A DNA stretch of 64,000 bases from Elusimicrobiota bacterium (GCA_043819795.1 JBDREN010000049.1:2379-66378), one strand, 5' to 3'. Positions 47,178-64,000 are shown, numbered from the stretch's first letter. Program-made: numbers and translations. Notes: generated by a model from the sequence alone, not told the origin.

Positions 47178-47220
47178 CCGCACGGCTGGGGATAGATCGG
47201 GAAAGTCCCCAGCCGTGCGG
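47178..47220. other. Perfect 15-bp GC-rich hairpin (ccgcacggctgggga / tccccagccgtgcgg, 13-nt loop) followed by TGCTTTG
   Basis: Read directly. Could be an intrinsic terminator with a weak U-tract, or part of a structured RNA. Confidence 0.5.
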
Positions 47221-47470
47221 TGCTTTGAGGCCTGCCCGAGTATCCTAGCCCGAATTCCCCGTCTGGATCGCTGGATTCGACGCAAGATGCCGGGACTTTT
47301 CTGTGCGAAATGTCTCGACCGCACGGTTTCCTGACAGGGAGTGGAAGCGGCATTTCCTCGTGGTGACGCTTGGTCATGCCGCAGCGGGTACGCTCTCCAA
47401 ATTCCGCGTTGAACTGGCCTCGGCCTCTTGCATCTCGGTCCCACGCGCCCAACTGGGGAATCCGGGCCAG

Positions 47471-47773
47471 GTGTAGTGAACCATAAATCCCTTGACATTC
47501 GGGCGATCGATTTCGGCCTCCGGCTAGGCGCGGGGAGCGCGCATGCCCGCAGGTATGTAAGCGACGAGCAACGACGCCGGAAGCCAAAAGCGCCCGCCCC
47601 CTCCTCCTTGACGCGGACAGCGGCGAAATTCTATGGAAAGGGGAGGCCCGATCCCGGCCGATTCCCACGTTGCTCCTCGGTTGCATAGCTTAAGCCATGC
47701 GCCCTCATCGCGCCTCGAAATCGACTCGGGCTCGGGCCTCCAAATGACAAGGGATTTATGATTCACTACACTA
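47471..47773. mobile_element. Candidate MITE-like element: ~303 bp bounded by ~32-bp imperfect terminal inverted repeats (29/32 core identity, extended similarity with one 12-nt indel)
   Basis: Left arm gtgtagtgaaccataaatcccttgacattcgg. Right arm ccaaatgacaagggatttatgattcactacac is its near-exact reverse complement. The interior is non-coding. Two mirror-image 86-aa ORFs on opposite strands are artefacts of this symmetry. Confidence 0.45.
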
Positions 47774-47941
47774 GCGATGGCCACTTACTGATTCGGATGG
47801 GGCAAATCCTTTCTATAGCGCAGTATTGTTAAATATGAAACATGTGGCGCTGCTAAACGTTGCAAAAGAGAAACTAGAAGCAGTTTGGAGGCATTCTGAA
47901 CTGGTCAAAAAGAACGAAAAAAACGCAACTATTGGTGGCTA

Positions 47942-47970
47942 TTGCAAAATGGAACGATATCTGCTATAAT
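47942..47970 (+). promoter_or_regulatory. Sigma-70-type promoter (TTGCAA, 17 bp spacer, TATAAT) for the downstream sigma-54 activator gene
   Basis: TTGCAA at 47942-47947, exactly 17 nt of spacer, TATAAT at 47965-47970, ~40 nt upstream of ATG 48011. Embedded in an unusually AT-rich stretch. Confidence 0.55.
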
Positions 47971-48010
47971 AGAACCATAGCATACGTTTCCAGCCGCCGG
48001 GAGTTGATAT

Positions 48011-49369
48011 ATGCAGTTTGAAGGCCAAGGTCGTTTTTTCGAGACCATCCTCCGTTGTGTCGCTGACGGCGTGTTCACGGTGGACCGCGACTGGCGTATC
48101 ACCTCCTTCAATAAGGCGGCCGAGCGCATCACGGGCATGAGCGCCCGGCAGGCCATGGGCAAGAGATGCTCCGAAGTCTTTCACGCGGACCTCTGCGGTG
48201 ACGGCTGCGCCATCAGGCGGGCTCTCGAGACCAAACGCGAGGTCATCGAGCAGCCGGCCAATATCCGCGACCAGCGCGGCAGGGCGATCCCGATAAGCAT
48301 CAGCGCGGCCGTGCTTCGGGGGGAGGACGGGACCGTCCTCGGCGGGGTCGAGACGTTCCGCGACCTGTCGGCCATCGAGCAGCTCAGGCGCGAGATCCGG
48401 AGCCAGTACACCTTCGAGGAGATCGTCGGCAAGAGCGAGGCTTTCCAGAAGGTGTTCTCCATCCTGCCGGACGTCGCCGCCAGCGAGAGCACGGTCCTCA
48501 TCGAAGGCCCGAGCGGCTCCGGCAAACAGCTCCTGGCGCGGACCATACACAACCTGAGCCCCCGCCGGGATCGGCCTTACGTCGTGGCGAACTGCGGGAT
48601 GATGCCGTCCGGCCGCTGCGCGTCCGAGCTTTTCGGCCACGTGCGAGGCGCCTTCAAGGACGCCAAGGGGGACCGGCTCGGCCGCATCGCGCAGGCCGAA
48701 GGGGGGACCATCTTCCTGGACGAGATCGGCGACCTGTCGATGGAGAGCCAGGTCAGGCTCCTCAAGGTCCTTCGGGACGGAGAATACGAGCCGCTGGGCG
48801 GCGTCAGTCCCCGGCGCGCCGATGTGCGCGTGGTCGCTGCCACGAGCAAGAGCCTGCCGGATCTGGTCGGGCGGGGGCTTTTCCGCGACGATCTCTACTT
48901 CCGCCTGGCGGTGGTGCGGCTGAGCATACCGCCCCTGTCCGAGCGGCGCGAGGACATCCCCTGCCTGGTCGAGCACTTCGTCCAGCGCTTCAACGCCAAG
49001 CGCGGCAAGAGCATCCAGGGGGTGACGCCCGCGGCCATGGAGCTTCTCATGCGCCATGGTTTTCCCGGGAACGTGCGCGAGCTGGAGAACCTGATCGAAT
49101 GCGGCTTCGCTCTATGCCACGGCGGATGGATGGACGTCGGCCATCTGCCCGAGGATCTGAGGCCGTCGCGGCGGCCGGGCGCCGCCGGGCGCCGCCTCGA
49201 GGGCGCGTCCCTGCTCCGGCACATCGAGGCGGACGCGGTCCGCGCCTCCTTGGGGCGGAACGCGGGCCATCTCGGCCGCACGGCCGAGGAGCTGGGCATC
49301 AGCCGGACCACGTTGTGGCGCAAGATGAACAAGTACGCCATCGAAGCGGACGAGTTCCGGGCCGGTTGA
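48011..49369 (+). CDS. Sigma-54-dependent transcriptional activator with N-terminal PAS sensor (no receiver domain) and C-terminal Fis-type HTH
   Basis: PAS (VFTVDRDWRITSFNKAAERITG) with a Cys cluster (CSEVFHADLCGDGC). AAA+ sigma-54 interaction domain (LIEGPSGSGKQLLA, GAFKDA, ESQVRLLKVL...FRDDLYFRL). HTH_8 (ELGISRTTLWRKMNKY). Confidence 0.85.
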   Translation: MQFEGQGRFFETILRCVADGVFTVDRDWRITSFNKAAERITGMSARQAMGKRCSEVFHADLCGDGCAIRRALETKREVIEQPANIRDQRGRAIPISISAAVLRGEDGTVLGGVETFRDLSAIEQLRREIRSQYTFEEIVGKSEAFQKVFSILPDVAASESTVLIEGPSGSGKQLLARTIHNLSPRRDRPYVVANCGMMPSGRCASELFGHVRGAFKDAKGDRLGRIAQAEGGTIFLDEIGDLSMESQVRLLKVLRDGEYEPLGGVSPRRADVRVVAATSKSLPDLVGRGLFRDDLYFRLAVVRLSIPPLSERREDIPCLVEHFVQRFNAKRGKSIQGVTPAAMELLMRHGFPGNVRELENLIECGFALCHGGWMDVGHLPEDLRPSRRPGAAGRRLEGASLLRHIEADAVRASLGRNAGHLGRTAEELGISRTTLWRKMNKYAIEADEFRAG

Positions 49370-49388
49370 CCCGGGGGGAGAGAACGCG

Positions 49389-50762
49389 GTGAGCACCCAA
49401 AGGAAATACAGCTACTTCGTCGAGCCCAAGGCGCTCGAGGTCGCGGAGCGTCCGCGAAAATTCCTCATGGCATTCGCGGCCGTGCTGAAGAACGCCAGCT
49501 ACGGGCTGGCGCTCGATACGTACGCGCGCCTGAGCACCAAATGCGGGCGTTGCGTGGCCTCCTGTCAGCTCTATCAGACCACGCGCGAGGAGCGGGACAT
49601 CCCCTGCCATCGCTCCGAGCTCCTGCTGCGGGTGTACCGGCGGTACTTCACGCATTCGGGCCGCCTCAAGGCCAAGATATTCAGCGGTTTCGAGTTGACG
49701 GACGCCTACTTGGACGAGATGGGCGAGGCCTACTACCGCTGCACCGCCTGCCGGCGGTGCAAGGCCACCTGCCCCATGGGCATCGACCACGCCCTGGTCA
49801 CTCATCTGGCCCGGTGGCTGCTCTCGGAGATCGACGTCATCCCCAAGGCGCTGTTGGTGGCGACGCGCGAGCAGCTCGAGGGCGTCGGCAATACCTCGGC
49901 CATCCCGGTCCCCGCGCTCAAGGACACCTGCGAGTTTCTGGAGGAGGAGCTCAAGGAGATCACCGGCGTGGACATCAAGTTCCCCATGGATGTCGAGGGC
50001 GCCGAGTACGTCTTCTTCCCGGCGGTCTCGGACTATCTGCTCGAGGCGGACACCCTCATGGGCAACGCGGCCGTCATGCACGTCACCGGCGGGTCGTGGA
50101 CCATCGGCACGGGCAACTACGACGGCATCAACTACGGCCTGTTCTACAGCGATCGCATGATGGAGCGGATCGTCAACAACGTCGTCAAGGAGGTCCGCCG
50201 CCTCAAGGGGAGGAAGGTCCTCGTCGGCGAATGCGGCCACGCCACTCGCAGCGCCTGGTACGTGCCGGCCTTCGGCGGCCCGGACGCGCCGCCGGTGGTC
50301 AATTGCTTGCAGTACGCCCACCGGATGCTCGAGGCCGGGAAGCTCCCCCTGAAGAAAGAGCTTATCAAGGAGCGGGTCACCTATCACGATCCGTGCAATA
50401 TCGCCAGGAGCGGGCGGATCACCGAGGAGCCTCGGGAGCTCCTTAAGGCTATCTGCGGGGACTTCGTGGAGATGACGCCGAACCGCGCGGAGAACTACTG
50501 CTGCGGCGGAGGCGGCGGCACGGTCTCCATCGACGAGATCCGGGCTTTCCGCACGGGTCTCATGGGAAAGCGCAAGGCGGATCAGATCCGCGCGACCGGC
50601 GCCAAATACGTCGTGTCGCCCTGCGCCAACTGCAAGAAACAGCTCCGCGAGGTCTGCGAGGACAACGGCCTCAACGAGGTCGAGGTCGTGGGCCTGCACG
50701 ACCTGCTGCTGAAGGCGATCGACTTCGGGGTCCCCGAGAAGAAAGGAGAGGACGATGGGTGA
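49389..50762 (+). CDS. DsrK/HdrD/HmcF-like iron-sulfur oxidoreductase (CCG-domain protein)
   Basis: Ferredoxin-type CxxCxxCxxxCP motifs (CGRCVASCQ; CTACRRCKATCP) and C-terminal CCG-domain motifs (PCNIA...YCCGGGGG...SPCANC). Confidence 0.75.
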   Translation: MSTQRKYSYFVEPKALEVAERPRKFLMAFAAVLKNASYGLALDTYARLSTKCGRCVASCQLYQTTREERDIPCHRSELLLRVYRRYFTHSGRLKAKIFSGFELTDAYLDEMGEAYYRCTACRRCKATCPMGIDHALVTHLARWLLSEIDVIPKALLVATREQLEGVGNTSAIPVPALKDTCEFLEEELKEITGVDIKFPMDVEGAEYVFFPAVSDYLLEADTLMGNAAVMHVTGGSWTIGTGNYDGINYGLFYSDRMMERIVNNVVKEVRRLKGRKVLVGECGHATRSAWYVPAFGGPDAPPVVNCLQYAHRMLEAGKLPLKKELIKERVTYHDPCNIARSGRITEEPRELLKAICGDFVEMTPNRAENYCCGGGGGTVSIDEIRAFRTGLMGKRKADQIRATGAKYVVSPCANCKKQLREVCEDNGLNEVEVVGLHDLLLKAIDFGVPEKKGEDDG

Positions 50763-51465
50763 GCTAGAGATCTGGACCGAGTGGGCGCGCGGGCCGCTGT
50801 TCAGGGCCGCGCTGGCGTTCATGATCCTGGGCCTTCTGCGTCACGCGGCGTTGACCATATGGGAGCTGGCGGGGATCATGTACCGCGCCGGCGACAAGGC
50901 CTTCCCGTGGAGGCGGGCATTCTCCGCCACGCTAAAATGGCTTTTCCCGGTGGGGCAGATCAAGAACCGTGTCCTCTACAGCCTGACCACGCTCGGCTTC
51001 CATGCCGCCGTCATCATCGTTCCCGTTTTTCTCGCGGGCCACGTCGCGCTCTGGGAGCGGGGCACGGGCCTGTGCTGGCCGACCATCCCCAACGGCGTGG
51101 CGGACGTGCTGACGATCATGGCCGTGCTCGCGGCGGCCTTGCTCGTGGCGGAGCGCGCGGCCGCGCGGGACTCCCGGGCGCTGAGCCGCTTCCAGGACTA
51201 CGCCTTGCCCCTGCTCGTGGCCGCGCCCTTCGCGACCGGCTTCCTGGTCATGCATCCGGCTTTAAACCCGTTCGGCCATGAAGCGACGATTCTGGTCCAC
51301 GTGTTGAGCGCGGATATTCTGTTCATCCTCATCCCGCTGACCAAGCTGAGCCACATGATCCTGCTCCCGGGCACGCAGATCATCTCCGAGCTGTCCTGGC
51401 ATTTCCCGCCGGACGCCGGCAGGAAAGTGGGCGTCGATCTCGGGAAGGAGAAGCAACCCATATGA
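50755..51465 (+). CDS. DsrM/HmcE/NarI-like di-heme b membrane subunit
   Basis: Five TM helices with conserved His pairs placed as in the nitrate-reductase gamma family. Translationally coupled to flanking genes. Confidence 0.65.
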   Translation: MGELEIWTEWARGPLFRAALAFMILGLLRHAALTIWELAGIMYRAGDKAFPWRRAFSATLKWLFPVGQIKNRVLYSLTTLGFHAAVIIVPVFLAGHVALWERGTGLCWPTIPNGVADVLTIMAVLAAALLVAERAAARDSRALSRFQDYALPLLVAAPFATGFLVMHPALNPFGHEATILVHVLSADILFILIPLTKLSHMILLPGTQIISELSWHFPPDAGRKVGVDLGKEKQPI

Positions 51466-52595
51466 AGAAGCCCGTCGCCATCCTTACGGACACGACGCTC
51501 TGCACCGGCTGCGAGGAATGCGTCGCGGCGTGCAAGAAGGAGAACGGCCTGGGCGAGGATCGCCGGTGGCGCTGGCAAAGCTCCGTGAGCGAGCTTTCCG
51601 CGTCGCGCTTCACCGCAATCATCCGTCGGCCCGGCAACCGCTACGTCCGCCAGCAGTGCCGGCACTGCGTGGACCCGGCGTGCGTGAGCGCCTGCATCGT
51701 GGGCGCGCTGCGGAAGACGGAAGAAGGCGCGGTGGTCTACGACCAGGATAAGTGCATCGGCTGCCGTTACTGCATGCTGGCCTGCCCCTACGGGATCCCG
51801 CGCTACGATTGGGAGAAGCCGATCCCGTACATCAGGAAGTGCACGCTCTGCTATGACAGGCTTGAGGAGGGAAAGGCCCCCGCCTGCGTGGAGGCCTGCC
51901 CCGAGAAGGCGACGATATTCGGCTCCCGCTCCGATATGCTGGCCGAGGCCCATCGGCGCCTGAAACGGCATCCCGGGAAGTACGTCCAGAAGGTCTACGG
52001 GGAACGCGAGGTGGGGGGGACGTCGGTCCTCTACATCTCGGACATACCCCTTGATTTCCTCGGCTGGCAGACCGATCCCGGCGAGCGGCCGCTGCCGGAC
52101 CTCACGTGGGCCGCCCAAAGGAAGATCCCGGCCGCGGCTCTGGGGGTGTTCGGGCTCATGGGCGGCACCTACTGGGTCATCGGCCGGAGGATGCAGGCCG
52201 CGGCGCGGGCGGGCCTGAAAGACGCGCCCCGGGAAGGGGACGCCCCGTCCGTGGGGCACGGGCATCCGGAGCAGGGAGGGGCCCTCTCCGGCCTGAAGAC
52301 GGCCCTGTGGATGCCTCTCGGCGTGGTGGCGGCCGTGACCATCGTGCGTTTCGCGCGGAATCTGGACGCGGCCGCGAGCCTCGGGGACGGAGCCCTCTGG
52401 ACCCTGTGGCTCGCCCTCGGCGTGGCGGGAGGCACCGGTCTCGGGGCGGGGATCCATTGGCTCGCCGCCCGCCGCAAGAAGGCGCCGGAGGAGGACGCGG
52501 AGCCCGAGGAAGGAACTCCCACCCCGCCCGTCCAGGCGTCGAAGACTTCCGTTCCCAAGCAGATCGCGGGCGACGGCGGCCCGAAGGAGCGATAG
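51462..52595 (+). CDS. DsrO/HmcB/PsrB-like four-cluster [4Fe-4S] ferredoxin-type subunit with C-terminal membrane anchor
   Basis: Four CxxCxxCxxxC(P) motifs (CTGCEECVAAC, CRHCVDPACVSAC, CIGCRYCMLACP, CTLC...ACVEACP) and 2-3 C-terminal TM helices. No obvious Tat signal. Confidence 0.7.
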   Translation: MKKPVAILTDTTLCTGCEECVAACKKENGLGEDRRWRWQSSVSELSASRFTAIIRRPGNRYVRQQCRHCVDPACVSACIVGALRKTEEGAVVYDQDKCIGCRYCMLACPYGIPRYDWEKPIPYIRKCTLCYDRLEEGKAPACVEACPEKATIFGSRSDMLAEAHRRLKRHPGKYVQKVYGEREVGGTSVLYISDIPLDFLGWQTDPGERPLPDLTWAAQRKIPAAALGVFGLMGGTYWVIGRRMQAAARAGLKDAPREGDAPSVGHGHPEQGGALSGLKTALWMPLGVVAAVTIVRFARNLDAAASLGDGALWTLWLALGVAGGTGLGAGIHWLAARRKKAPEEDAEPEEGTPTPPVQASKTSVPKQIAGDGGPKER

Positions 52596-52599
52596 GGCG

Positions 52600-54561
52600 A
52601 TGATGCCTCTGAGAAGAATCAAGAGCCTGCTCTGGTTCGTCCTGGGCGCGGGCATGGTGACCATCGCCGCGCGGCTGCTCACCGGGCTCGGCGCGGTCAC
52701 CAACCTGTCCCACAACGTTTCCTGGGGCCTGTGGAACGCGGTCAAGATCAGCATCGTGCCCCTCTCGGCCGGAGGGTTCGTTTTGGCTGCGATCGTCTAC
52801 GTCTTCCATATGGAGAGGTTCCGTCCCGTGCTCCGTTTGGCCATCCTTACGGGGTTTTTGGGCTACTCGACCTTCGCCACGATGCTCATGTTCGATATCG
52901 GGGTGCCCTACCGGATATGGCATCCCATGGTCTACTGGCAGCACCATTCCGTGCTCTTCGAAGTGGCGTGGTGCGTGATGCTGTATCTGACCGTGCTGGC
53001 CCTCGAGTTCTTGCCCAACGTGCTGGAGCATCCTCTGCTGAAGCACCCCCTGCTCCAGAAGGGATACAAGCTCCTGAAGAGCGCGACCGTACCCCTGGTG
53101 ACCGCGGGGATCGTGCTGTCCACGCTGCACCAGTCGTCGTTGGGCTCGCTGTTTTTGATCGTCCCCCACCGTCTCGATCCCTTATGGTACAGCCCGCTGA
53201 TACACGCGCTCTTCCTGGTCTCCGCCGTCGGGATGGGGCTTCTGGTGATCGCCGTGGAGGCGGTCCTGATCGAGCGTCTCTACGGCGTCAAGGCGCCGCT
53301 GGACGTCCTCGCCCCTTTGGCCCGCGCGGGCGCGGTGGTGATGGCCCTCTTCTTGGCCGTCAGGCTGGCCGACCAGGTCGCTCGCGGGGTGCTCCCGGGT
53401 GCTCTGAGCACATCTCCGATGGCGGCGGCATTCGTCCTTGAGACTCTGATCGCCTCGATCGTGCCGCTGCTGCTTCTGCGCAGGAGCGTCCGCGAGAGCC
53501 GCGGGGGCCTGTTCGCCTGCTCTCTTTCCGCGGTGCTGGGAGTCGTCTGGTACAGGTCGAACGTCGCCTTGCTGGCCATCGACTGGGGCGAGGCGGCCTA
53601 TTTCCCGGCGTGGACCGAGTTCGCCCTGTGCTTCGGCATACTGGCCGGGTCGGGCTTGGTGTTCTTCTTGCTGCTGGAGAACCTGGACATTTATTACGGG
53701 CCGGCCGCATCCGGCCGTGACCGCGAGCCGCAGGTGCCGGGGTTGGCGTTCGAGGCTTGGCTGGCGGACGCGAGGATCACCGCGGCCAGGCGCTATTCCC
53801 TGTTCATCGTGGCGGGCGCGGCGGCGGCCGTCTTGTTTCTCCCCGAGGGCACGGTGTTCGGAGCCAGGCCCGCGGACACGCCGGCGGCGCAGGCCCGGCG
53901 GGTCCGGGGCTTGTCGGTCCGGACCGGCGGCGGACGCGTCAGCACGCTGCGCCTCGGCGAGAGGCCGGTCCCCGCTAAGGGCCGAGTGAAGCGCCTGCCG
54001 CTTTACCTGATTGACGGCGACCGCGATGAGGACGCGGTCCTCTTCGATCACGCGGGCCATGTCAAGCGGGCGGGCGGCGAGAAGCGCTGCGGGGTGTGCC
54101 ATCACCTGAACATGCCGCTCGACGAGAACACCTCCTGCCATGAATGTCATCGCGACATGTACGAGCCCGCCTCCGTGTTCAGCCACGCATCGCATGTGCG
54201 CGAACTCGGGGGGAACGCGGGCTGCGTCAAGTGCCATGAGGATCCTCTCGTGGTGAAGGACCGCCGGACGGCCGTCGCTTGCGGGGAATGCCACTCCGAT
54301 TCGGCGGCAAAGGGCTCCTTCGTCGAGGCGCCGGGGCCGAGGTGGGGGGCCGCGCCGGGCTACGCGGACGCGATGCACGGCCTCTGCGAGAGTTGTCATA
54401 AGAAGAAGGCGAAAGAAGAGCCGGGCCGTTATCCCGCGGCGCTGGGGCGTTGCGCCGCCTGCCACGATACGGACCGCCCCATGGATATCCGTCGGATGGC
54501 GCCGCGAAGTGATAGAATGCGGGCCATGCGCGCCGAGGAACGCGGGCTCTCGGGCGGCTGA
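52600..54561 (+). CDS. NrfD/PsrC/DsrP-like polytopic membrane subunit fused to a C-terminal hexaheme cytochrome c domain (DsrJ/HmcA-like)
   Basis: ~10 TM helices of the NrfD family over ~430 aa, then a soluble C-terminal domain with six CxxCH motifs (CGVCH, CHECH, CVKCH, CGECH, CESCH, CAACH). Confidence 0.7.
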   Translation: MMPLRRIKSLLWFVLGAGMVTIAARLLTGLGAVTNLSHNVSWGLWNAVKISIVPLSAGGFVLAAIVYVFHMERFRPVLRLAILTGFLGYSTFATMLMFDIGVPYRIWHPMVYWQHHSVLFEVAWCVMLYLTVLALEFLPNVLEHPLLKHPLLQKGYKLLKSATVPLVTAGIVLSTLHQSSLGSLFLIVPHRLDPLWYSPLIHALFLVSAVGMGLLVIAVEAVLIERLYGVKAPLDVLAPLARAGAVVMALFLAVRLADQVARGVLPGALSTSPMAAAFVLETLIASIVPLLLLRRSVRESRGGLFACSLSAVLGVVWYRSNVALLAIDWGEAAYFPAWTEFALCFGILAGSGLVFFLLLENLDIYYGPAASGRDREPQVPGLAFEAWLADARITAARRYSLFIVAGAAAAVLFLPEGTVFGARPADTPAAQARRVRGLSVRTGGGRVSTLRLGERPVPAKGRVKRLPLYLIDGDRDEDAVLFDHAGHVKRAGGEKRCGVCHHLNMPLDENTSCHECHRDMYEPASVFSHASHVRELGGNAGCVKCHEDPLVVKDRRTAVACGECHSDSAAKGSFVEAPGPRWGAAPGYADAMHGLCESCHKKKAKEEPGRYPAALGRCAACHDTDRPMDIRRMAPRSDRMRAMRAEERGLSGG

Positions 54562-54565
54562 AACC

Positions 54566-55681
54566 ATGGCCCCCAAAGAGATAGAAAGCTGGCTTCGATC
54601 GAGCCTCTTTAACGAGGTCCCGGTGAGCATCTGCGTGATCGACCGGGGTTTCCGGATCATCGAGGCGAACCGGAGGTTCAGGGAGGAATACGGCCCCTGG
54701 AAGGACCGGGCGTGCCACGAGGTCTGCAAGGGTCTGGAGGAGCCCTGCGAGCGTTGCGGCGCGGTCAAGACCTTCTCGGACGGGCGCGTGCGCAACCGGG
54801 AGGAGACGGGAGCGGGCGGGAAGCACTACCTGGTGCACATGGTCCCCATCACCACCGACGGCGGGGATATCTCCTACGTCATCGAGACGTTCACGGATAT
54901 CACGCAGGTGAAGCAGCTGGAGGGCGAGAAGCGCGAAGCCGAGCGTCTGGCCGCCGTCGGCGAGACCGTGGCCGGCATCGCCCACGGCATGAAGAACGTG
55001 CTTACCGGGCTCGAAGGCGGCGTCTATGCCGTCAATACGGGCATCCAGCATGGCGACGACGAGAGGATCACCGAAGGCTGGGCCATGCTCGAGGAGAATA
55101 TCGCGCGCATCTCGGAGTTTGTCAAGGAGTTCCTGGCTTTCTCCAAGGGGCGCATCGCGCGGGTGGCCTTCGTGGACCCCAACGCCCCGGCGCGGGCGGT
55201 CTTTGAGCTCTTCCGGGAGAAGGCCGCGCAGGCGGGCATCGAGCTGAAGGCGGACCTGCAAGAGGGGATTCCTCCCGCGCCCCTGGACGAGCAGGGGATC
55301 CACGCCTGCCTGGCCAACCTCGTATCGAACGCCCTGGACGCCTGCTCCATGGGCGAGCAGCGGCGCGCGTGCGTGGTGACGATTCGCTCCCGGGAGCGCA
55401 GCGGGACGCTAGTGTACGAGGTTGCGGACAACGGCCGCGGGATGGACTACGAGATCAGTAGGAAAGTGTTTTCGAGGTTCTTCAGCACGAAGGGCTCGGA
55501 CCGGGGCACGGGTCTGGGGCTGCTCACCACTAAGAAGACCATCCACCAGCACGGCGGCCGGGTCTCGTTCAGCTCCGAGGAGAGCAGGGGCTCGGTGTTC
55601 CGCATCGAGCTTCCCCGGGAAAGACTGCCCAAGCCGGGCGGGAAGCCCGCCCAACGACAGGCCGCGGAAGGAGACGCCTGA
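54566..55681 (+). CDS. PAS-domain sensor histidine kinase (cytoplasmic; PAS with Cys4 cluster)
   Basis: PAS (ICVIDRGFRIIEANRRF) with CHEVCKGLEEPCERC. H-box AHGMKNVL, N/G boxes (LVSNALDA, GTGLGL). Start set at ATG 54566. Confidence 0.8.
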   Translation: MAPKEIESWLRSSLFNEVPVSICVIDRGFRIIEANRRFREEYGPWKDRACHEVCKGLEEPCERCGAVKTFSDGRVRNREETGAGGKHYLVHMVPITTDGGDISYVIETFTDITQVKQLEGEKREAERLAAVGETVAGIAHGMKNVLTGLEGGVYAVNTGIQHGDDERITEGWAMLEENIARISEFVKEFLAFSKGRIARVAFVDPNAPARAVFELFREKAAQAGIELKADLQEGIPPAPLDEQGIHACLANLVSNALDACSMGEQRRACVVTIRSRERSGTLVYEVADNGRGMDYEISRKVFSRFFSTKGSDRGTGLGLLTTKKTIHQHGGRVSFSSEESRGSVFRIELPRERLPKPGGKPAQRQAAEGDA

Positions 55682-56229
55682 TGGACAAAGAGAACGCCAA
55701 AGGACGCGCCGAGGATAAGACCGTACTCGTGGTCGATGACGAGCCGAACGTGCGCCGCCACCTGGCCCACATCCTAGAGGACGCCGGCTTCAAGGTCCTT
55801 ACGGCCTCCGATGGGGATGAGGCCCTGAAGACCATCCGGGAGCGGCGCCCGGACATCATCTCGCTCGACCTGGTCATGCCGCGCAAGAGCGGGCGCCGGC
55901 TGCTCTACGAGCTGAAGAAGGATAAGGAGCTCTCCCGCATCCCGGTGGTCATCGTCACCGCGCACGCCCAGGACGAGCTGGGCCAGAGCGACATGGAAGC
56001 CATCAGGGAGAGCATGATCATATCGGGCCCGGGCTTCTATCTGGAGAAGCCGGTTAGGCCCATGGACTACGTGCGCTGCATCCAGGAAGCCCTGGGCATC
56101 GAAGTGGCGGATCAAGCCGCGGACAAAGTCAGCCTCAAGGACGAGCTGAAGCGGCAGATGCAGGGGGCGGAGCCGCACGCGCTGCGCCGCGCCCTCGAGG
56201 CGTTGAGAAAGAAAGGCCCGCCGCGCTAG
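55681..56229 (+). CDS. Response regulator, receiver domain with C-terminal extension (no DNA-binding domain recognised)
   Basis: VLVVDDEPNVRRHL...DIISLDLVMPRKSG...VVIVTAH receiver signature. Confidence 0.75.
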   Translation: MDKENAKGRAEDKTVLVVDDEPNVRRHLAHILEDAGFKVLTASDGDEALKTIRERRPDIISLDLVMPRKSGRRLLYELKKDKELSRIPVVIVTAHAQDELGQSDMEAIRESMIISGPGFYLEKPVRPMDYVRCIQEALGIEVADQAADKVSLKDELKRQMQGAEPHALRRALEALRKKGPPR

Positions 56230-56248
56230 AGGGCCGAGGAGACCTGCG

Positions 56249-56602
56249 ATGGCGAAGAAGATCCTGATCGTCGAAGACGAGCCGCACGTCGTGAAGTATC
56301 TCGAGATGTTCCTCCACGACGCGGGCTTCCAGACGGTATCCGCGAGCGACGGTCAGACGGGTCTGGAGCTGGCCAAGCGCGAGAAGCCGGACCTGGTGAT
56401 CCTGGACCTTATGATGCCGAAGAAGACGGGGACGGACTTCTACCGGAAGCTCTCCAGGGACAAGGAGCTCGGCGATACCCCCGTCATCGTGGTCAGCGGT
56501 CTGGCCGGCCGAGATCTCGTCGTCAGGAAGCCTGCGGCGGTGTTCGACAAGCCCCCGGACCGCGAGGGGCTCATCGCCGCCATCAAGAAAGCCCTCCCGT
56601 AG
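56249..56602 (+). CDS. Single-domain response regulator (CheY-like)
   Basis: ILIVEDEPHVVKYL...DLVILDLMMPKKTG..PVIVVSG. Confidence 0.8.
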   Translation: MAKKILIVEDEPHVVKYLEMFLHDAGFQTVSASDGQTGLELAKREKPDLVILDLMMPKKTGTDFYRKLSRDKELGDTPVIVVSGLAGRDLVVRKPAAVFDKPPDREGLIAAIKKALP

Positions 56603-56651
56603 AGCCCCGGCTTCTGGAGCTTGCCCGGAGCAGGTATCCGGGCGACCGCCC

Positions 56652-56676
56652 CGGCAGGAACGTTGCGTGCTATAAT
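56652..56676 (+). promoter_or_regulatory. Candidate sigma-54 (-24/-12) promoter cGGcaggaacgttGCg overlapping a TATAAT box, upstream of the hydrogenase operon
   Basis: GG at 56653-56654 and GC at 56665-56666, separated by exactly 10 nt (consensus TGGCAC-N5-TTGCA). TATAAT at 56671-56676. A sigma-54 activator is encoded at 48011. Confidence 0.4.
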
Positions 56677-56708
56677 CCTGTGAGAACGCGGCGCCGGGGG
56701 GAAGTCCG

Positions 56709-57752
56709 ATGCTGTACAAGGTGATCACGAAGGCCGAGTTTCGGAAGTTCGTCGACGGCCTGATCCAGGACAACCAGACTATAGGCCCCAAGCGGGTCGC
56801 CACGGACGCGAAAGGCAAGCCCGTCTACCAGTTTGTCGAGGTCCGCTCCTTCGACGAGTTGGACCTCGACTACACGATCACCTACTCCTCGGTGAAGAAT
56901 TTCTTCCACCCCTTCCGCGAGGAGCTGTCTCGTTTCAAGCTGAAAGATGACGATTGGGAGCAGGAGATCGAATACCGCGTCAATCCGAGGGTCATCATCG
57001 GCGTGCGGCCGTGCGACATCAACGCCTTGGCGATCCTGGACAAGGTGTTCTTGAGCGGGAGATTCCCCTCGCCGTACTACATCGCCCGGCGCCGGAACAC
57101 CTTCCTGATCGGAATGGACCATCTGCCCCTGGATGACTGCTTCTGCGAGTCCCTGAACCGGCACGCCCCGCGCGAGGGGTTCAACCTCTACTGCTCGGAC
57201 ATCGGGGACAGATACTATCTCTCGATCCTTTCCTCAAAGGCCTTCAGCTTCCTCAAGAACGTGAGGACGAGCGAGCCCTCCAAGGCGGACAACAAAAGAT
57301 ACATCGAGAGAAGAAAGCTCATCAAACGGAGCTTCAAGACCAAGGTGGAGGTCTCGGGCCTGCCGAGCTTCCTGGACATCGAGTTCAAGTCCCCGATATG
57401 GGATAAATGGGGGGACAAGTGCCTGAACTGCGGGACATGCGCCATGGTCTGCCCCACGTGCTACTGCTACGGGGTGGAGCAGTCCGTGGACGTGGACCTG
57501 AAGACCGCCCGCAAGGAGCGCATGCTGTACTCCTGCAACGTCGTGGATTTCGCGGAGGTGGCCGGAGGGCACAACTTCAGGCCGAAGAAGGCGGACAGGC
57601 TGAAGTACCGGTTCTATCACCATTACAGGGGTTTCGAGGAGAACGCCGACGAGCAGATCTGCGTTGGCTGCAACCGGTGCGGCAGGGCCTGCCTGGCGGG
57701 GATCAACCCGAAGGACGTGATCAACGACTTGAGGCTGGAGACCGGAGAATGA
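56709..57752 (+). CDS. Group 3b [NiFe]-hydrogenase beta subunit / anaerobic sulfite reductase AsrA-like iron-sulfur subunit
   Basis: AsrA/HydB-like Cys clusters ([16 protein letters not shown]; [14 protein letters not shown]). Confidence 0.75.
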
Positions 57753-58663
57753 AGGCGGGATTCAAAATACCCAGGCAGGACATCAATCTCGAGCCGTTCA
57801 TGACGGCGCCTCCCCAGTTCAACCGCAAGACCATCGTCATGCGCACGGACAAGGTCTACAAGTGCGAGCTCATCAACATCGTCGAGCTGACCTCCATGGA
57901 GAAGCTCTTCCATCTCAAGATCATCGACCCCCGCGAGAGGAAGCTGTTCTCCTTCCGGCCGGGACAGTTCGTGATGGTCCAGGTGCCCGGCTCCGGGGAG
58001 GTCCCGGTCTCCATATCGAGCTCGAGCAACAACCGGGAGTTCCTGGAGCTGTGCGTCCGCAGGGCGGGGCGCACCACCGGCATGCTGCACCGGGCCCGGA
58101 TCGGCGCGAAGGTGGGGATCCGCGGGCCCTTCGGCTCGTCTTTCCCCATGGAGGAGATGGCTGGCCACAACGTCCTGCTGATCGCCGGAGGGCTCGGCCT
58201 GGCCCCCCTGCGCGCCCCCATCTGCTGGGTCAACGAGCGCCGGGACCAGTACGGCGACGTCCACATCCTCTACGGCGCCAAAGAGCCTTCCCAGATGCTC
58301 TTCACGTACGAATTCAAGGAATGGGAACGGGTGAACCACATCAATCTGCTGACCATCGTCGAGAAGGCGGACAAGGCCTGGAAGGGCGGGACGGGCCTCA
58401 TCACCGAGCTCTTCAGGGATTTCTCCATCAAGCCGCTCGACACCTACGCGATCGTGTGCGGGCCGCCCGTCATGTTCAAGTTCGTGTGCGGGCATCTGGA
58501 CTCCATCGGGGTTCCCATGAACCGCATGTTCGTCTCCCTGGAGCGGCGGATGCACTGCGGCATGGGCAAGTGCTGCCGGTGCATGGTGGGCTCGACGTTC
58601 ACCTGCGTGGAAGGCCCCGTGTTCGACTACTGGAGCGTCATGAATTTGAAGGAGGCGATTTGA
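57749..58663 (+). CDS. Group 3b [NiFe]-hydrogenase gamma subunit / AsrB-like FAD-NAD(P) oxidoreductase with [2Fe-2S] cluster
   Basis: Ferredoxin-reductase-type FAD/NAD-binding fold ([20 protein letters not shown]) and C-terminal CGMGKCCRC...C cluster. Start set at ATG 57749, overlapping the upstream stop. Confidence 0.75.
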
Positions 58664-59415
58664 GATACCTCGGCATCGAGCTCAAGAAGCCCAGGATCGC
58701 CGTCTTCGACTTCACCTGCTGCGAGGGCTGCGAGCTGCAGCTGGCGAACAAGGAGGAGACCCTGGTCGATTTCCTCTCCCTTGTCGAGGTCGTGAACTTC
58801 CGGGAGGTGTCCTCGGACAAGAGCGAGGACTACGAGATCGCCTTCGTGGAGGGGGCGGTCTCGAGGGAGGATGAGGTCGCTCGCCTGAAGAAGATCAGGG
58901 TGAACGCGAAGGTCCTCGTGGCTTTCGGCGCCTGCGCCTGCTTCGGCGGCGTGAACCAGATCAAGAACAAGTTCCCGCTCAAGTCGGTCGTCCGAGAGGT
59001 GTACGGCAGGCACCGCGTGGCCACGTCCAAGGTGCGGAAGATCAGCGAAGTGGTCAAAGTGGATCTCGAGATCCCGGGCTGTCCGGTCTCCAAGAAAGAG
59101 GTGGAAAGGATCGTCGTCGCTCTGGTCACGGGCGCGGGCATCAGCCTGCCGAAGTACCCCGTCTGCCTCGAGTGCAAGGCGAAGTGCAACGTCTGCGTCC
59201 TGGACCTCGGGCAGATCTGCCTGGGTCCGATCACGCGCGCGGGCTGCGATTCGCCCTGCCCATCCGGGGGGACCGCGTGCCTGGGCTGCAGGGGGCCGGC
59301 GCCCGAGGCCAATTACGAGTCGTTCCTGCGGATATTGAAAGACCGGGGCTTCAAGGCCCCGGAGATCAAGGAGAGGCTCGAGTTCTACGGCGCCTTCAAC
59401 GGGGTCATGAGATGA
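58660..59415 (+). CDS. [NiFe]-hydrogenase small (delta) subunit, group 3 type
   Basis: Proximal-cluster Cys ligands ([10 protein letters not shown]; GACACFGG; PGCP). TTG start at 58660 after AGGAGG. The track ORF in this frame is artificially extended upstream. Confidence 0.75.
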
Positions 59416-60686
59416 AGCGCGCCAGGGAGATCACCGTACGCCATGTGACCCGGGTCGAGGGCCACGGCGACATCCATATCAAGGTGAAAGACGGCCGGCT
59501 CGTGGATGCGCGGTGGGCCGTGGTGGAGACCCCGCGTTTCTTCGAGGCCATGCTCAAGGGCATGTCCCATGATCTGGCGCCCATACTGACGGCCAGGATC
59601 TGCGGCATCTGCTCCATAGGCCACTGCCTGGCGAGCCTGAGGGCGGTGGAGAGGGCCATGGACGTCAAGGTCCCGGAGACCGCGCGGCTGTTGCGCCTGC
59701 TCGCCAAGCACGGCGAGACCCTTCAGAGCCACGCGCTCCACGTGTTCTTCCTGTCCGCGCCCGATCTCTTCAAGGTGGGGAGCGTCATCCCCCTGATCAA
59801 GTCCCATCCCGAGGTCGTCGGCATCGCGGCCAGGCTCAAGAAGCTGGGAAACGACGCTTGCGACCTGATCGCGGGGCGGACCACGCACCCGGTGAGCCTG
59901 GTGGTGGGCGGGCTCAGCAGGCTGCCCACGGACAAGCAGATCGAGGAGCTGAGGGGCGCGTTCCTTGCGAGGCTGCCGGACATGCGCGCGGCCGTCGACC
60001 TCTTCAAGACGCTTCCCATGCCGGACTTCCAGCGGGAGACGGAGTTCGTGTCATTGAAGGGCCAGGGGGACTATCCCTGGATCGGGGGGGATCTCGTGTC
60101 GTCCGACGGCGTCCGCAGGCCGGAGGACGGCTACCTGGCCATGACGAACGAATACAAAGTGGAGTTCAGCACCTCGAAGTTCGCCAAGCTGAGTAGGGAG
60201 TCCTTCGCGGTCGGCGCCCTGGCGAGGTTCAACAACAATCACAAGCATCTGCGGCCGGAGGCGAAGGGAGCCGCCAAGGCGCTGGGCTTGAGTCCCCTGA
60301 GCCACAACCCTTTCATGAACAACGTGGCCCAGCTCGTGGAATGCTATCACGTGATGCTGGAGTCCATCGAGTTGCTGGACGGGCTTCTGGGCCGCCGGGG
60401 AAAGACCGCGTCCCGTCCTTATAAAGTGAAGGCCGGCCGGGGCGTCGCCGCCGTGGAGGTGCCCCGGGGCATCCTCTACCACGAATACGAGCTCGACAAG
60501 AAGGGCAAGGTCGTCAGGGCGAACTGCGTCATCCCCACCACGCAGAACCACGCCAACATCCACCACGATCTCCGGGCGCTCGCCGCGCGGCTGGTGCGGG
60601 AAGGCAAAAGCGACGGGGAGATCACTTTGCTGAGCGAGATGCTGGTCCGGTCCTACGACCCCTGCATCTCCTGCTCCGTCCACTAG
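59412..60686 (+). CDS. [NiFe]-hydrogenase large (alpha) subunit, group 3b type
   Basis: N-terminal Ni-Fe ligands [10 protein letters not shown] and C-terminal DPCISCSVH. The protein ends exactly at the His, with no C-terminal extension. Start ATG 59412 overlaps the small-subunit stop. Confidence 0.85.
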
Positions 60687-61591
60687 AGCAGATCTTTCGC
60701 CTCGGGGAAGCTCGTCTGGGTGCCGGACGAGCGCACGCTGAGGGCGGCCACGCGGTTGGCCCGCCGTACCGCTTCGGGCAGCGCCGTGCCGGAGGCCAGG
60801 AAGAAGGCCAGGCTGCCCACGAACGCGTCCCCGGCTCCGGTCGTGTCGACGGCCTTCACGGGCTCGACGGGCACGTGCTCGGCGCCGCCGCCGGCGACTA
60901 GCAGGCTGCCCCGCTCTCCCAGGGTCAGGATCACCGTCCCCGCTCCGCGCTCCACGAGGACGCGCGCCGCGGCCTCGGCCTCCTTTGGGGTCCCCACCGG
61001 CATGCCGGTCAGGAGCTCGGTCTCGCTCTCGTTGGGGCAGAAGACGTCGCTCAGCCGGTAGAGCTCCTCCGGCAGGTCCGGACGGGCCGGCGCCGGATTG
61101 AAGATGGTCCTTACTCCTTCCTGGCGGGCGATGCGCAGGGCGGCCAAGGAGACCTCCAGGGGGATCTCCAGCTGGCAGACCAGTATCCGGGCGGCGGCGA
61201 TCGACCGGCGCCCGGCCTCGATCTCACCCTCGGTCAGCAGATCGTTGGCTCCGGTCACGATGATGATGGAGTTGCGCCCTTCCGGGTCCACGGCGATCGG
61301 GGCCACTCCCGAGAACGCCCGGTCGGTGAGATGCACATGCCGGGTGTCCACTCCCAGGGACTCGAAGTTCTTCAAGGTGTCCTTGCCGAAGACGTCGTCT
61401 CCCAGCTTGGCCACCATGGCGACGTCGCCTCCCAGTTTGGCGGCCATGACCGCCTGGTTGGCGCCCTTGCCCCCGAATCCCATGTGGAAGCGGGTCCCAT
61501 GCAGAGTCTCGCCCACGCGGGGCAGCCTCGGCACGTAACTGATCAGATCGAGATTGCATGCCCCCACGACGCAGATCTTCGGTCTATCCAT
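60683..61591 (-). CDS. rbsK: Ribokinase (PfkB family)
   Basis: GGKGANQA and DTTGAGDAF motifs. 302 aa. Confidence 0.85.
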   Translation of the reverse strand: MDRPKICVVGACNLDLISYVPRLPRVGETLHGTRFHMGFGGKGANQAVMAAKLGGDVAMVAKLGDDVFGKDTLKNFESLGVDTRHVHLTDRAFSGVAPIAVDPEGRNSIIIVTGANDLLTEGEIEAGRRSIAAARILVCQLEIPLEVSLAALRIARQEGVRTIFNPAPARPDLPEELYRLSDVFCPNESETELLTGMPVGTPKEAEAAARVLVERGAGTVILTLGERGSLLVAGGGAEHVPVEPVKAVDTTGAGDAFVGSLAFFLASGTALPEAVRRANRVAALSVRSSGTQTSFPEAKDLL

Positions 61592-61756: not shown

Positions 61757-62272
61757 ATGGTAGACCCTGCAAAGGCTTTTACCGAACCTGTGATTGCGAT
61801 CGGGACGCTGGCTGAGAAGAGCGGCCTTTCCGTATCCGCGATCCGGAAGTACGAGGCGGAGGGCCTGCTCATTCCCTTTCGGACGCCTTCCGGCCATCGC
61901 CTGTTTTCTCACGAGGACATGGACCGGGTGAAGATCATCCGCCACATGATCCAGGAGCTGGGCCTGAACATCGAGGGCATCAGGAGGCTGCAGGCGCTGC
62001 TTCCGTGCTGGGAGCTGGTCCGGTGCTCGGAGGATAAGCGAAGCGAGTGCCCGGCCTACAAAGACAACTCCAAGCCGTGCTGGATGGTCCGGGGAGGGGA
62101 CTGCAGCGCGCGCGGGAACGAATGCCGCAGCTGCGCGGTGTACCGGTTCGGCTCGCAGTGCACCGAGGACATCAAGCGCGTGGTGCACAACCGGGCGGCT
62201 CCGGAGGAGCTGAGCGAGGAAGTGCGGAAGGCTTTGAACAGGCTGGAACAACCTGAGAAGGGGGATAGATGA
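61757..62272 (+). CDS. MerR-family transcriptional regulator with C-terminal Cys-rich (8 Cys) domain
   Basis: MerR HTH (IGTLAEKSGLSVSAIRKYEAEGLL) and a C-terminal segment CWELVRC...C..C...C..C..C..C. Confidence 0.75.
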   Translation: MVDPAKAFTEPVIAIGTLAEKSGLSVSAIRKYEAEGLLIPFRTPSGHRLFSHEDMDRVKIIRHMIQELGLNIEGIRRLQALLPCWELVRCSEDKRSECPAYKDNSKPCWMVRGGDCSARGNECRSCAVYRFGSQCTEDIKRVVHNRAAPEELSEEVRKALNRLEQPEKGDR

Positions 62273-63156
62273 TAGTCATACTCACCTATGTCGCGTTGAT
62301 CGTGTTCGGGGCGGGATTCCTTTATAGAGGCTTAAGCATCGCGATGATGCCGGTGCATCTGCGATGGGAGCTCGCGCCCGTGCCGCACGAAAAAGGAAGA
62401 GCCCATTACGGGGGGTCTTACCTGGAGGAGTTCGAGTGGTGGACCAAGCCCAGGGAGAAGTCGCTTGTGGGCGAAGCCTTCTACATGTTCCAGGAGATCG
62501 TCTTCCTCAAGGGAGTCTGGGAGCACAACCGCTCTTTGTGGGTGTTCTCCTTCCCGTTCCATTTCGGTTTGTACCTGCTCGTCGGCATGGGGGGGTGCCT
62601 CATCCTGGCGTCTTTCGGCGTCCCATTCTTCGGCCCGGCGGCTTTGGCCCTCGGAGGAGCGGGCTACGTGCTGGGCAGCGTCGGGACCTTGGGGCTCCTT
62701 GCCAGGCGCGCCTTCGACCCCAAGCTCAAGCCCTTCACCAGCATGGCGTCGTATTTCAACCTCCTGTTCCTGGCGGCGGTGTTCGTGACCGGCTGCGTCG
62801 CGTTGTTCTCGGGGGGCTTTCTGGCGGACATGACCTCCTACCTCAAGGCCGTCGCCTTCGCCGAGGCGGGGCCGGCGCTGGGCGCCGCGATCTCGACGCA
62901 CATCGCCGTGGGGATGCTCTTCCTCGTCTACCTGCCGTTCACCTACATGATGCATTTCGTGGCCAAGTACTTCACCTACCACGAAGTGCGGTGGAACGGC
63001 GAGCCCATGTCGGGCAATGACGCCATGCAGGAAGAGGTCAAGAAGCTGCTCGGGCAGACCGTGACGTGGTCCGCTCCACACATCGGCGCCGACGGCAAGA
63101 AGAACTGGGTCGATATCGCCACCGCGGGGACAGCCAAGGAGAAAAAAGATGCCTAA
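62269..63156 (+). CDS. NarI/DsrM/HdrE-like heme-b membrane subunit (second copy)
   Basis: Five to six TM helices with conserved His residues. Confidence 0.55.
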   Translation: MIVILTYVALIVFGAGFLYRGLSIAMMPVHLRWELAPVPHEKGRAHYGGSYLEEFEWWTKPREKSLVGEAFYMFQEIVFLKGVWEHNRSLWVFSFPFHFGLYLLVGMGGCLILASFGVPFFGPAALALGGAGYVLGSVGTLGLLARRAFDPKLKPFTSMASYFNLLFLAAVFVTGCVALFSGGFLADMTSYLKAVAFAEAGPALGAAISTHIAVGMLFLVYLPFTYMMHFVAKYFTYHEVRWNGEPMSGNDAMQEEVKKLLGQTVTWSAPHIGADGKKNWVDIATAGTAKEKKDA

Positions 63157-64000
63157 GCCCCTGAGAGTCGAGGATTTCGGGAAGAACGAAGGGCAGCAGC
63201 TGACCAGCGTCGACATGAGCGACCTGGTCCCCCTGCCGCCCCCTTACGACAAGATCGAGGAGCAGCCGGTATGGAAGGAGATCAAGCCGGAGGCGAAGGA
63301 GAAGATGGCCTGCAACCTCGACGGGGTGGTCGCCTGCAGCCTGCCCAAGCCCAAGGACGCCGCCGAGGAGCAGGAGATCGTCGACAAGTTCGTCTCGGGC
63401 CTTAGGAAAATCCTGACGAAAGAGAACAATTGGACCTTCCTCCAGCCGCTTATGCTGTCTTTGGAGTACTGCGCCAAGTGCCAGACCTGCAACGACGCCT
63501 GCCCGGTCTACGAATTCAGCGGCAAGAACGACCTCTACCGGCCCACTTACCGTTCCGAGGTGTGGCGGCGCCTGGTCAACAAGTACGTCAAGTCCGGCCC
63601 CAAGTGGCTGGCGAAGTTCAAGCACGGGGATATCGACCTTAACTGGACGACGGTCTCGAGGCTCTACGAGCTTGCCTACCGCTGCACCTTGTGCCGCCGC
63701 TGCGCGCAGGCCTGCCCCATGGGAGTCGACAACGGGCTCATCACCCACGAGCTGCGCAAGATCTTCAGCCAGGAGCTGGGCTGGGCCCCGAAGGAGCTCC
63801 ATGAGAAGGGCACCGTGCTGCAGCTCGATGTCGGCTCCTCGACGGGCATGAGCCCCCTGGTGGTCAAGGACAACATCGAGTTCGTGGACGAGGACTTCTC
63901 CGAGGAGTCCGGCCTGGACGCCAAGACTCCGTGGGACAAGGAGGGCGCGGAGGTCCTGCTCATCCATAACGCGGGCGAGATCATGACCTGGCCGGAGAAC
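63149..64000 (+). CDS. DsrK/HdrD-like iron-sulfur oxidoreductase, second copy (3' end beyond the window)
   Basis: Not in the ORF track because no stop occurs before 64000. Frame read manually from ATG 63149 (RBS AAGGAG). CAKCQTCNDACP and CTLCRRCAQACPMG motifs are paralogous to the 49389 gene. Confidence 0.65.
   Translation, partial: MPKPLRVEDFGKNEGQQLTSVDMSDLVPLPPPYDKIEEQPVWKEIKPEAKEKMACNLDGVVACSLPKPKDAAEEQEIVDKFVSGLRKILTKENNWTFLQPLMLSLEYCAKCQTCNDACPVYEFSGKNDLYRPTYRSEVWRRLVNKYVKSGPKWLAKFKHGDIDLNWTTVSRLYELAYRCTLCRRCAQACPMGVDNGLITHELRKIFSQELGWAPKELHEKGTVLQLDVGSSTGMSPLVVKDNIEFVDEDFSEESGLDAKTPWDKEGAEVLLIHNAGEIMTWPEN

Follow-up and report, generated by a model that had tools for sequence, protein, structure and literature searches.

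Does a [NiFe]-hydrogenase always have to be synthesised as a precursor, and do regulatory genes that lie next to a hydrogenase operon necessarily belong to it? Both questions are raised by the genes hydB, hydG, hydD and hydA, found at positions 56709-60686 of a 64,000-nucleotide stretch of DNA from an Elusimicrobiota bacterium (GCA_043819795.1, JBDREN010000049.1:2379-66378; this whole stretch is referred to here as the window). An earlier note, made from the sequence, had read these genes as a group 3b (sulfhydrogenase-type) hydrogenase operon whose large subunit ends at the last histidine of its C-terminal metal-binding motif, and had described the histidine kinase and two receiver-only proteins encoded just upstream as a module dedicated to it. 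Our analysis makes it highly probable that the operon encodes a 3b-type hydrogenase in its mature form, that the kinase module is part of a separate gene cassette, and that the hydrogenase probably has a promoter of its own.

The four hydrogenase genes (Table 1) overlap by 4 nucleotides (nt) at each junction. They had been thought to be coupled through ATGA/TGA overlaps throughout; the overlaps are indeed present everywhere, while the ATG is not. An ATGA is shared by hydB and hydG and again by hydD and hydA, and hydG and hydD share a TTGA, with hydD starting at TTG and an aaggagg ribosome-binding site 5 nt upstream of it. HydA has both nickel-iron binding motifs in complete form, with the L1 motif (RxCGxCxxxH type) at residue 62 and the L2 motif, DPCISCSVH, at residues 416-424. 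The protein is identical to the NCBI entry 'MAG: Ni/Fe hydrogenase subunit alpha [Elusimicrobiota bacterium]'. HydD contains 15 cysteines, GCP motifs among them. The same four-subunit operon occurs in six related loci; a hydB counterpart of the same length and position is found in L001, L002 and L088-L090, and the hydD orthologue of L001 is likewise 251 amino acids (aa) long with a 4-nt overlap.

The best matches in NCBIfam and in the PDB, together with the four-subunit operon, support the earlier assignment to group 3b. Families built on the Pyrococcus sulfhydrogenase subunits top the NCBIfam ranking for all four genes. HydB scores best with sulfhydrogenase ShyB (222 bits; HydB 191, AsrA 146), HydG matches PRK08345 'cytochrome-c3 hydrogenase subunit gamma' (272 bits) and ShyC (232), HydD matches HydD (183 bits) and ShyD (164), and HydA reaches 255 bits with ShyA and 242 with HydA, versus 155 for FrhA and 152 for VhuA. 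Among proteins of known structure, HydA is most similar to the alpha subunit of P. furiosus sulfhydrogenase I (SHI; 9e15_B, 221 bits) and to T. kodakarensis HyhL (5yxy_A, 215 bits). The runners-up are MvhA (191 bits), H. thermoluteolus HoxH (148) and Frh alpha subunits (104-134), the margin over group 3c in this search being only about 30 bits. These similarities support reading the operon as a group 3b (sulfhydrogenase-type) [NiFe]-hydrogenase, closer to 3b than to 3a, 3c, 3d, 1, 2 or 4. The presence of group 3b hydrogenases in groundwater Elusimicrobia has been reported (bioRxiv 10.1101/765248).

The 3' end of hydA reads GAC CCC TGC ATC TCC TGC TCC GTC CAC TAG, that is, DPCISCSVH followed directly by the stop codon at 60684-60686. 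In the archaeal enzymes the P. furiosus precursor (9nez_D) and T. kodakarensis HyhL (5yxy_A) are both 428 aa long, and mature SHI alpha (9e15_B) has 424 aa. The 424-aa HydA of the window aligns end to end with mature SHI alpha, and therefore the gene encodes the already-processed form. The short archaeal-type C-terminal peptide, reported for the archetype T. kodakarensis to be cut off by a HybD/HycI-type endopeptidase, is absent from this protein; it is not a part of the formal definition of the 3b class. That the stop codon might be an error was a worry of the earlier note, and both the homologues and the gene that follows show it to be genuine. All 120 of the 120 closest homologue clusters of HydA (64-100% identity; drawn from NCBI, JGI, ENA and Logan) stop at DPC[IV]SCSVH with no residue after it, and the homologue in the finished genome of Chloroherpeton thalassium ATCC 35110 likewise ends at this histidine. 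A ribokinase gene (60683-61591, minus strand; TIGR02152, 352 bits) converges on hydA, and the plus-strand stop of hydA and the minus-strand stop of the ribokinase gene overlap in the palindrome CTAG at 60683-60686; therefore there is no free coding space beyond the HydA histidine. Reading through the stop would yield SRSFASGK..., a peptide unlike the extensions observed in homologues. The absence of an extension, as first read from the window, is genuine and is fixed across a whole bacterial clade rather than being peculiar to this locus.

How does this compare with what has been described for other hydrogenases? The groups listed as extension-free are 2b, 2d, 4c and 4e, to which one source adds 4g, and group 3b is missing from these lists (PMC7294309; PMC12134894). 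For the 3b large subunit of T. kodakarensis, protease-dependent cleavage by an endopeptidase has been reported (PMC7654741). Our literature searches on extension-free group 3b enzymes and on hydrogenase maturation in Chloroherpeton found nothing usable. A broader survey, in which 1.84 billion cluster representatives were searched, gave 136 diverse group-3 large subunits with the motif. The extension is absent in 33 of these and is 4-22 residues long (mostly 4-10) in 95. Seven others (P0218, P0230, P0242, P0249, P0253, P0261 and P0262) have a protease-sized tail of 162-202 residues directly after DPCxxCxxH, which belongs to the HycI family (PF01750) in three of the four tested, and one has a 134-residue tail. 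In a tree of the group-3 representatives, built by neighbour-joining only, the zero-extension state appears in several separate lineages. The window clade is uniformly zero-extension. Its nearest sisters mostly retain an extension, of 4-9 residues in P0122-P0125, and P0126 has none. We consider it reasonably probable that the assembly peptide was lost independently in at least four bacterial 3b-type lineages (a clade of Elusimicrobiota, Chlorobi and Planctomycetota, and at least three others), which would mature without an endopeptidase, their sisters keeping 4-22 residues or fusing the protease.

The maturation genes seen in and around these operons are in keeping with the earlier statement that the window holds neither hyp nor protease genes. 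No Pfam match to HypA-F or to the HycI family was found among the roughly 50 open reading frames called across the 64-kb window with a codon-position GC heuristic, and tblastn of the window with the seven protease-sized tails of related large subunits gave nothing below E = 0.08. A HycI-like sequence was found neither in the window nor in seven related loci. In L092, whose HydA is 72% identical and extension-free, a divergent hypA-hypF-hypC-hypD-hypE cluster lies directly upstream of the operon with no HycI gene, and in L090 hypA-hypB adjoin the hydrogenase operon with no protease gene adjacent. The cluster of L092 (682-5836) has no recognisable hypB among its called genes. Because no member of the clade has an extension, it is a reasonable and sound step to infer that these enzymes would mature independently of a protease.

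The second question concerns the kinase and the two receivers that precede hydB. Pfam confirms the domains proposed for these three proteins and for the sigma-54 activator encoded at 48011 (Table 1). The kinase and the receivers are the 3' end of a separate, conserved Hmc-like cassette and are not specific to the hydrogenase. We compared 83 other loci that carry the kinase, of which three are annotated contigs (one of them a complete Gemmatimonadota chromosome) and 80 come from metagenomes. The metagenome loci were found with an alignment of the kinase and searched by tblastn with twelve window proteins, and counts refer to loci with enough flanking sequence. The gene for an NrfD-cytochrome fusion lies directly upstream of the kinase gene in 43 of 45 loci, and all four redox genes of the cassette are upstream of it in 29 of 29. 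Of 20 loci with 7.5 kb or more of upstream sequence, 19 have the sigma-54 activator gene ahead of the cassette. The first receiver gene comes immediately after the kinase gene in 42 of 44 loci, and the second receiver is present in 41 of 44. A hydrogenase subunit is encoded downstream of the kinase in 0 of 40. The three annotated contigs share the order activator, optional Nitro_FeMo-Co protein, CCG protein, membrane protein, Fer4_11 protein, NrfD-cytochrome, kinase, receiver, receiver, and no hydrogenase follows the cassette in any of them. In another Elusimicrobiota locus (L091), with a kinase that is 73% identical, the cassette is followed by the canonical Hmc gene set and the hydrogenase is absent.

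The reverse comparison gives the same picture, as the six hydrogenase operons of the window clade (L001, L002, L088-L090 and L092) have no kinase or receiver gene upstream. With the kinase found beside Hmc-like genes in the absence of the hydrogenase, and the hydrogenase found in the absence of the kinase, the module therefore belongs to the cassette. The description of the module as dedicated to the hydrogenase was not borne out, neither by the 40 kinase loci nor by the six hydrogenase loci. In this genome the cassette happens to adjoin the hydrogenase operon. The proposal that a phosphorelay ends at the sigma-54 activator also failed. This protein is itself the first member of the cassette, and its input domain is a PAS domain, with no receiver present; therefore it could not be phosphorylated in the usual two-component way and would not be the end of a conventional phosphorelay.

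The cassette, counted as nine genes, keeps its order and spacing across three phyla (48011-56602 in the window; L003-L005, L008-L087 and L091). In the window all intergenic gaps between 48011 and 56602 are at most 19 nt, and the kinase gene starts 4 nt after the NrfD-cytochrome gene. Homologues of HmcF, HmcE, HmcB and HmcC are brought together here in one operon, with all NCBIfam scores of the four redox proteins below the equivalog cut-offs. The NrfD-cytochrome has six CxxCH haem-binding motifs at residues 497-622, and the fusion is kept in related loci. The CCG protein is 74-83% identical in most cassette loci, and the kinase homologues are 56-75% identical in Elusimicrobiota, Planctomycetota and Gemmatimonadota. 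The kinase has the H-box AHGMKN with an invariant H140, and its PAS domain (54566-54940) has three cysteines, C50, C61 and C64 (C-x10-C-x2-C), that are invariant in 27 aligned homologues. This cysteine triad suggests that the domain senses redox state through a metal or an Fe-S cluster. The PAS domain of the activator also bears a Cys-rich stretch, CSEVFHADLCGDGC; BLASTP of the activator PAS against the kinase PAS gave an 18-residue match only and thus no evidence that the two are paralogous sensors. No description of the cassette was found in the literature searched. It appears to be uncharacterised and is arguably the more intriguing object of the region.

The hydrogenase operon is separated from the cassette by a gap of 106 nt, in which two promoter-like elements can be recognised (Table 1). 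One of them is an extended -10 element, TGcTATAAT, that has no good -35 hexamer and was omitted by the promoter scanner. The other is a weak sigma-54-like -24/-12 element. Matches to the sigma-54 pattern are not enriched in the window (35 found versus 47 expected by chance), and therefore the site before hydB is without statistical support. Five related operons have no such site ahead of hydB. The window contains only two copies of the 8-mer AACGTTGC, one upstream of the activator gene (47856-47863) and one upstream of hydB (56659-56666), a count that is within chance since 20% of shuffles reach two or more. Both copies lie in promoter-bearing gaps of a same-strand cluster, and their placement is curious. 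No terminator is predicted between the second receiver gene and hydB. Local co-regulation of the hydrogenase by the cassette is possible but unsupported, and we think it improbable.

Most other cassette loci differ from the window in their regulatory sequences. A sigma-54-type -24/-12 element is found there between the activator and the redox (CCG) genes, with TGAAAC/GTTTCA (or TGCAAC/GTTGCA) repeats about 100-150 nt upstream of it (L003, L004, L009, L018, L021, L054, L058, L059, L074 and L087). The repeats are likely binding sites of the activator. In the window just 19 nt separate the activator gene from the CCG gene, and a search of the 64 kb for groups of at least three TGAAAC/GTTTCA sites found none. 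A search against Rfam gave no match in the window.

Table 1. Coordinates of the hydrogenase genes, the cassette genes and the promoter-like elements in the window
Feature	Positions	Strand	Description
Sigma-54 enhancer-binding protein	48011-49369	+	First cassette gene; Pfam PAS-AAA+-HTH_8, no Response_reg
CCG protein (CCG/HdrD-like)	49389-50762	+	Pfam CCG; best NCBIfam DsrK/TmcB/HmcF
Cytochrome b-like membrane protein	50755-51465	+	Best NCBIfam TmcC/HmcE
Fer4_11 iron-sulfur protein	51462-52595	+	Pfam Fer4_11; best NCBIfam HmcB
NrfD fused to six-CxxCH cytochrome c domain	52600-54561	+	Pfam NrfD, Cytochrom_CIII; best NCBIfam HmcC
Cytoplasmic PAS histidine kinase	54566-55681	+	371 aa; Pfam PAS_4, HATPase_c
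Receiver-only protein 1	55681-56229	+	182 aa; Pfam Response_reg only, tail of about 50 aa without known domain
Receiver-only protein 2	56249-56602	+	117 aa, DVU0259/DivK-like; Pfam Response_reg; NCBIfam DVU0259_DivK 135 bits (cut-off 160)
Weak sigma-54-like -24/-12 element	56652-56666	+	Candidate; cGGCAGgaacgTTGC; 8 of 10 specified positions match
Extended -10 element	56668-56676	+	Putative; TGcTATAAT, read from the sequence in the 106-nt gap before hydB
hydB	56709-57752	+	347 aa, beta subunit, AsrA-like Fer4_22 iron-sulfur protein; Pfam Fer4_22 (8e-28)
hydG	57749-58663	+	304 aa, gamma subunit, FAD/NAD(P)-binding and [2Fe-2S] domain; Pfam FAD_binding_6, NAD_binding_1, DHODB_Fe-S_bind
hydD	58660-59415	+	251 aa, delta (small) subunit; Pfam Oxidored_q6
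hydA	59412-60686	+	424 aa, alpha (large, [NiFe]) subunit; Pfam NiFeSe_Hases

From these data a function can be proposed for the operon. It would encode a cytoplasmic heterotetrameric beta-gamma-delta-alpha [NiFe]-hydrogenase, with alpha and delta forming the H2-activating module by homology, and with beta and gamma (Fe-S, FAD/NAD(P) and [2Fe-2S]) connecting this module to NAD(P)(H). By this link the enzyme would serve in redox balancing, interconverting H2 and NAD(P)H; a bidirectional, NAD(P)-linked activity is what homology predicts. The hydA gene would encode the form that ends at the very histidine after which archaeal 3b precursors are cut, and HypA-F encoded elsewhere would presumably insert the cofactor with no endopeptidase step, as in groups 2b, 2d, 4c, 4e and 4g. 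Transcription probably starts at the operon's own promoter in the 106-nt gap; because no terminator is present in this gap, the operon may also receive read-through from the cassette.

Several readings compete with this one, and they can be weighed on the same evidence. If the kinase and two receivers formed a dedicated phosphorelay controlling the hydrogenase, with the sigma-54 activator at 48011 as terminal regulator, this would fit with genes that adjoin hydB on the same strand with no terminator in between, with the sigma-54-like element at 56652-56666, and with an 8-mer that is found upstream of the activator gene and hydB only. However, kinase, receivers and activator travel with Hmc-like genes in 83 loci and with the hydrogenase in 0 of 40, related hydrogenase operons do without the module (six) and without the sigma-54-like site (five), and the activator has no receiver domain. 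Moreover, the sigma-54 pattern turns up no more often than chance predicts, and 20% of shuffles contain the 8-mer at least as often, so that such a phosphorelay is quite unlikely. The partners of regulatory hydrogenases are a PAS kinase and an NtrC-type activator, and genes for a hydrogenase, a PAS kinase and a sigma-54 activator are all in the neighbourhood. The enzyme could thus be pictured as an H2 sensor like HupUV/HoxBC (group 2b) that signals via the PAS kinase to the sigma-54 activator, all the more since regulatory hydrogenases also have no C-terminal extension (PMC7294309; PMC12134894). This is very improbable, as the operon includes the beta and gamma diaphorase-type subunits of catalytic 3b enzymes, its sequence similarity is to group 3b and not to group 2, and the operon occurs without the kinase in six genomes and the kinase without the hydrogenase in at least 40 loci.

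An error of sequencing or assembly, or a recent truncation, could in principle hide a normal extension behind the hydA stop. Nothing speaks for this beyond the general possibility in a metagenome assembly, and its probability is negligible: the same histidine is the last residue in homologue clusters of many samples and in a finished genome, the opposite strand immediately beyond the stop is ribokinase coding sequence, and the read-through peptide is unlike known extensions. Both the H2-sensor and the sequencing-error readings were rejected, the former for its 3b-type subunits and lack of co-conservation and the latter for the clade-wide identical terminus. The enzyme might still depend on a protein of HycI/HoxW type from elsewhere in the genome that serves as a chaperone and not as a protease. 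In Salmonella the maturation protease still binds a large subunit without the peptide (PMC7654741), and the genome beyond the window could encode such a protein. No protease gene, however, adjoins the six related operons, two of which have adjacent hyp genes, and in other groups that naturally have no extension the Hyp machinery suffices for maturation (PMC7294309); a chaperone requirement is therefore unlikely.

Some observations count against our own account of a 3b-type hydrogenase encoded in mature form beside a separate cassette. Every NCBIfam score for the hydrogenase subunits is below the equivalog cut-off, and therefore the window enzyme is related to the characterised archaeal enzymes without being their orthologue; the neighbour-joining tree sets the window clade and P. 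furiosus SHI on different branches. The NAD(P) specificity and the direction of the reaction are taken from homology. The presence of hyp genes elsewhere and the absence of a protease gene genome-wide are presumed. Lastly, the region from 48011 to 60686 holds 13 genes in the same orientation, no terminator is predicted among them, and AACGTTGC is found in both promoter regions only, so that some local co-regulation is conceivable.

The genes on either side of the region may be mentioned briefly. Just upstream of the cassette are genes for a very large hybrid sensor kinase (41706-45680; 1324 aa, with GAF, three PAS, HisKA, HATPase_c, two receivers and Hpt) and a solute-binding protein (45713-47005). 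They are followed by a 1-kb stretch (47005-48010) with no convincing open reading frame, lower G+C than its surroundings and no Rfam or tRNA-type match. This stretch ends in a strong sigma-70-like promoter, TTGCAA-17-TATAAT (47942-47970), which overlaps a sigma-54-like element at 47950. Beyond the ribokinase gene there are a MerR-family regulator (61757-62272), a membrane protein of NarI/DsrM type (62269-63156) and a DsrK-like Fe-S protein, the last of which is cut off by the window end. The 61757-64000 region is a second Dsr/Hdr-type redox module beside the hydrogenase.

What follows from this locus? The operon itself is ordinary and belongs to routine genome content. A modest new point is that group 3b is absent from the published lists of extension-free hydrogenases (PMC7294309; PMC12134894), yet the state is fixed in a large bacterial 3b clade. 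About a quarter of diverse group-3 representatives are extension-free, alongside short-peptide and protease-fusion forms. Group 3 would therefore be a useful comparative set for asking why the proteolytic checkpoint exists and, if the reading is true, a natural series on the purpose of peptide and protease. In practical terms, it bears on producing NAD(P)-linked hydrogenases in foreign hosts without the matching protease. The genes for the kinase and the two receivers should be annotated with the Hmc-like cassette and not with the hydrogenase.

Among known systems, the cassette resembles Hmc, Tmc and DsrMKJOP of sulfate reducers in its CCG/HdrD-like subunit, NarI-like cytochrome b, Fer4_11 protein, NrfD and multihaem c domain. 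It differs in that the iron-sulfur subunit begins MKKPVAILTD, with no obvious twin-arginine signal. Next to the tmc operon of D. vulgaris there are presumably DVU0258-0260, an association that we treat as a lead only; a literature search on DVU0259 gave nothing usable. As in the hmc operon of D. vulgaris, where rrf1 and rrf2 are found (PMC10924467), regulators are encoded at the 3' end. In contrast to Hmc, the six-CxxCH domain is fused to the C-terminus of NrfD and there is no separate 16-haem HmcA, the regulators are a sigma-54 activator, a PAS kinase and two receivers, and the hosts are Elusimicrobiota, Gemmatimonadota and Planctomycetota. Systems like HupT/HupR and HoxJ/HoxA combine co-conservation with the hydrogenase and a receiver-bearing sigma-54 activator, and neither feature is found in the window.

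The hydrogenase itself is most readily compared with sulfhydrogenases I and II of P. furiosus (HydBGDA/ShyBCDA) and Hyh of T. kodakarensis (PDB 9e15, 9nez, 5yxy). It has their four subunit types in the beta-gamma-delta-alpha order and their L1 and L2 motifs, with DPCISCSVH being identical, and the window HydA is collinear with mature P. furiosus SHI alpha (424 aa) over residues 6-424. It differs from them in its bacterial (Elusimicrobiota) source and in an identity of only about 35-40%. The archaeal precursors are 428 aa long, with four residues past the histidine, whereas the window HydA has zero. In this last respect it is like the sensors of groups 2b and 2d, CooH of 4c, Ech of 4e, and 4g, whose large subunits end at the His/Arg of the C-terminal motif and for which maturation is expected to proceed without endoproteolysis. 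These enzymes, however, belong to other phylogenetic groups and have other partner subunits, whereas the window enzyme has an NAD(P)-linked beta-gamma module.

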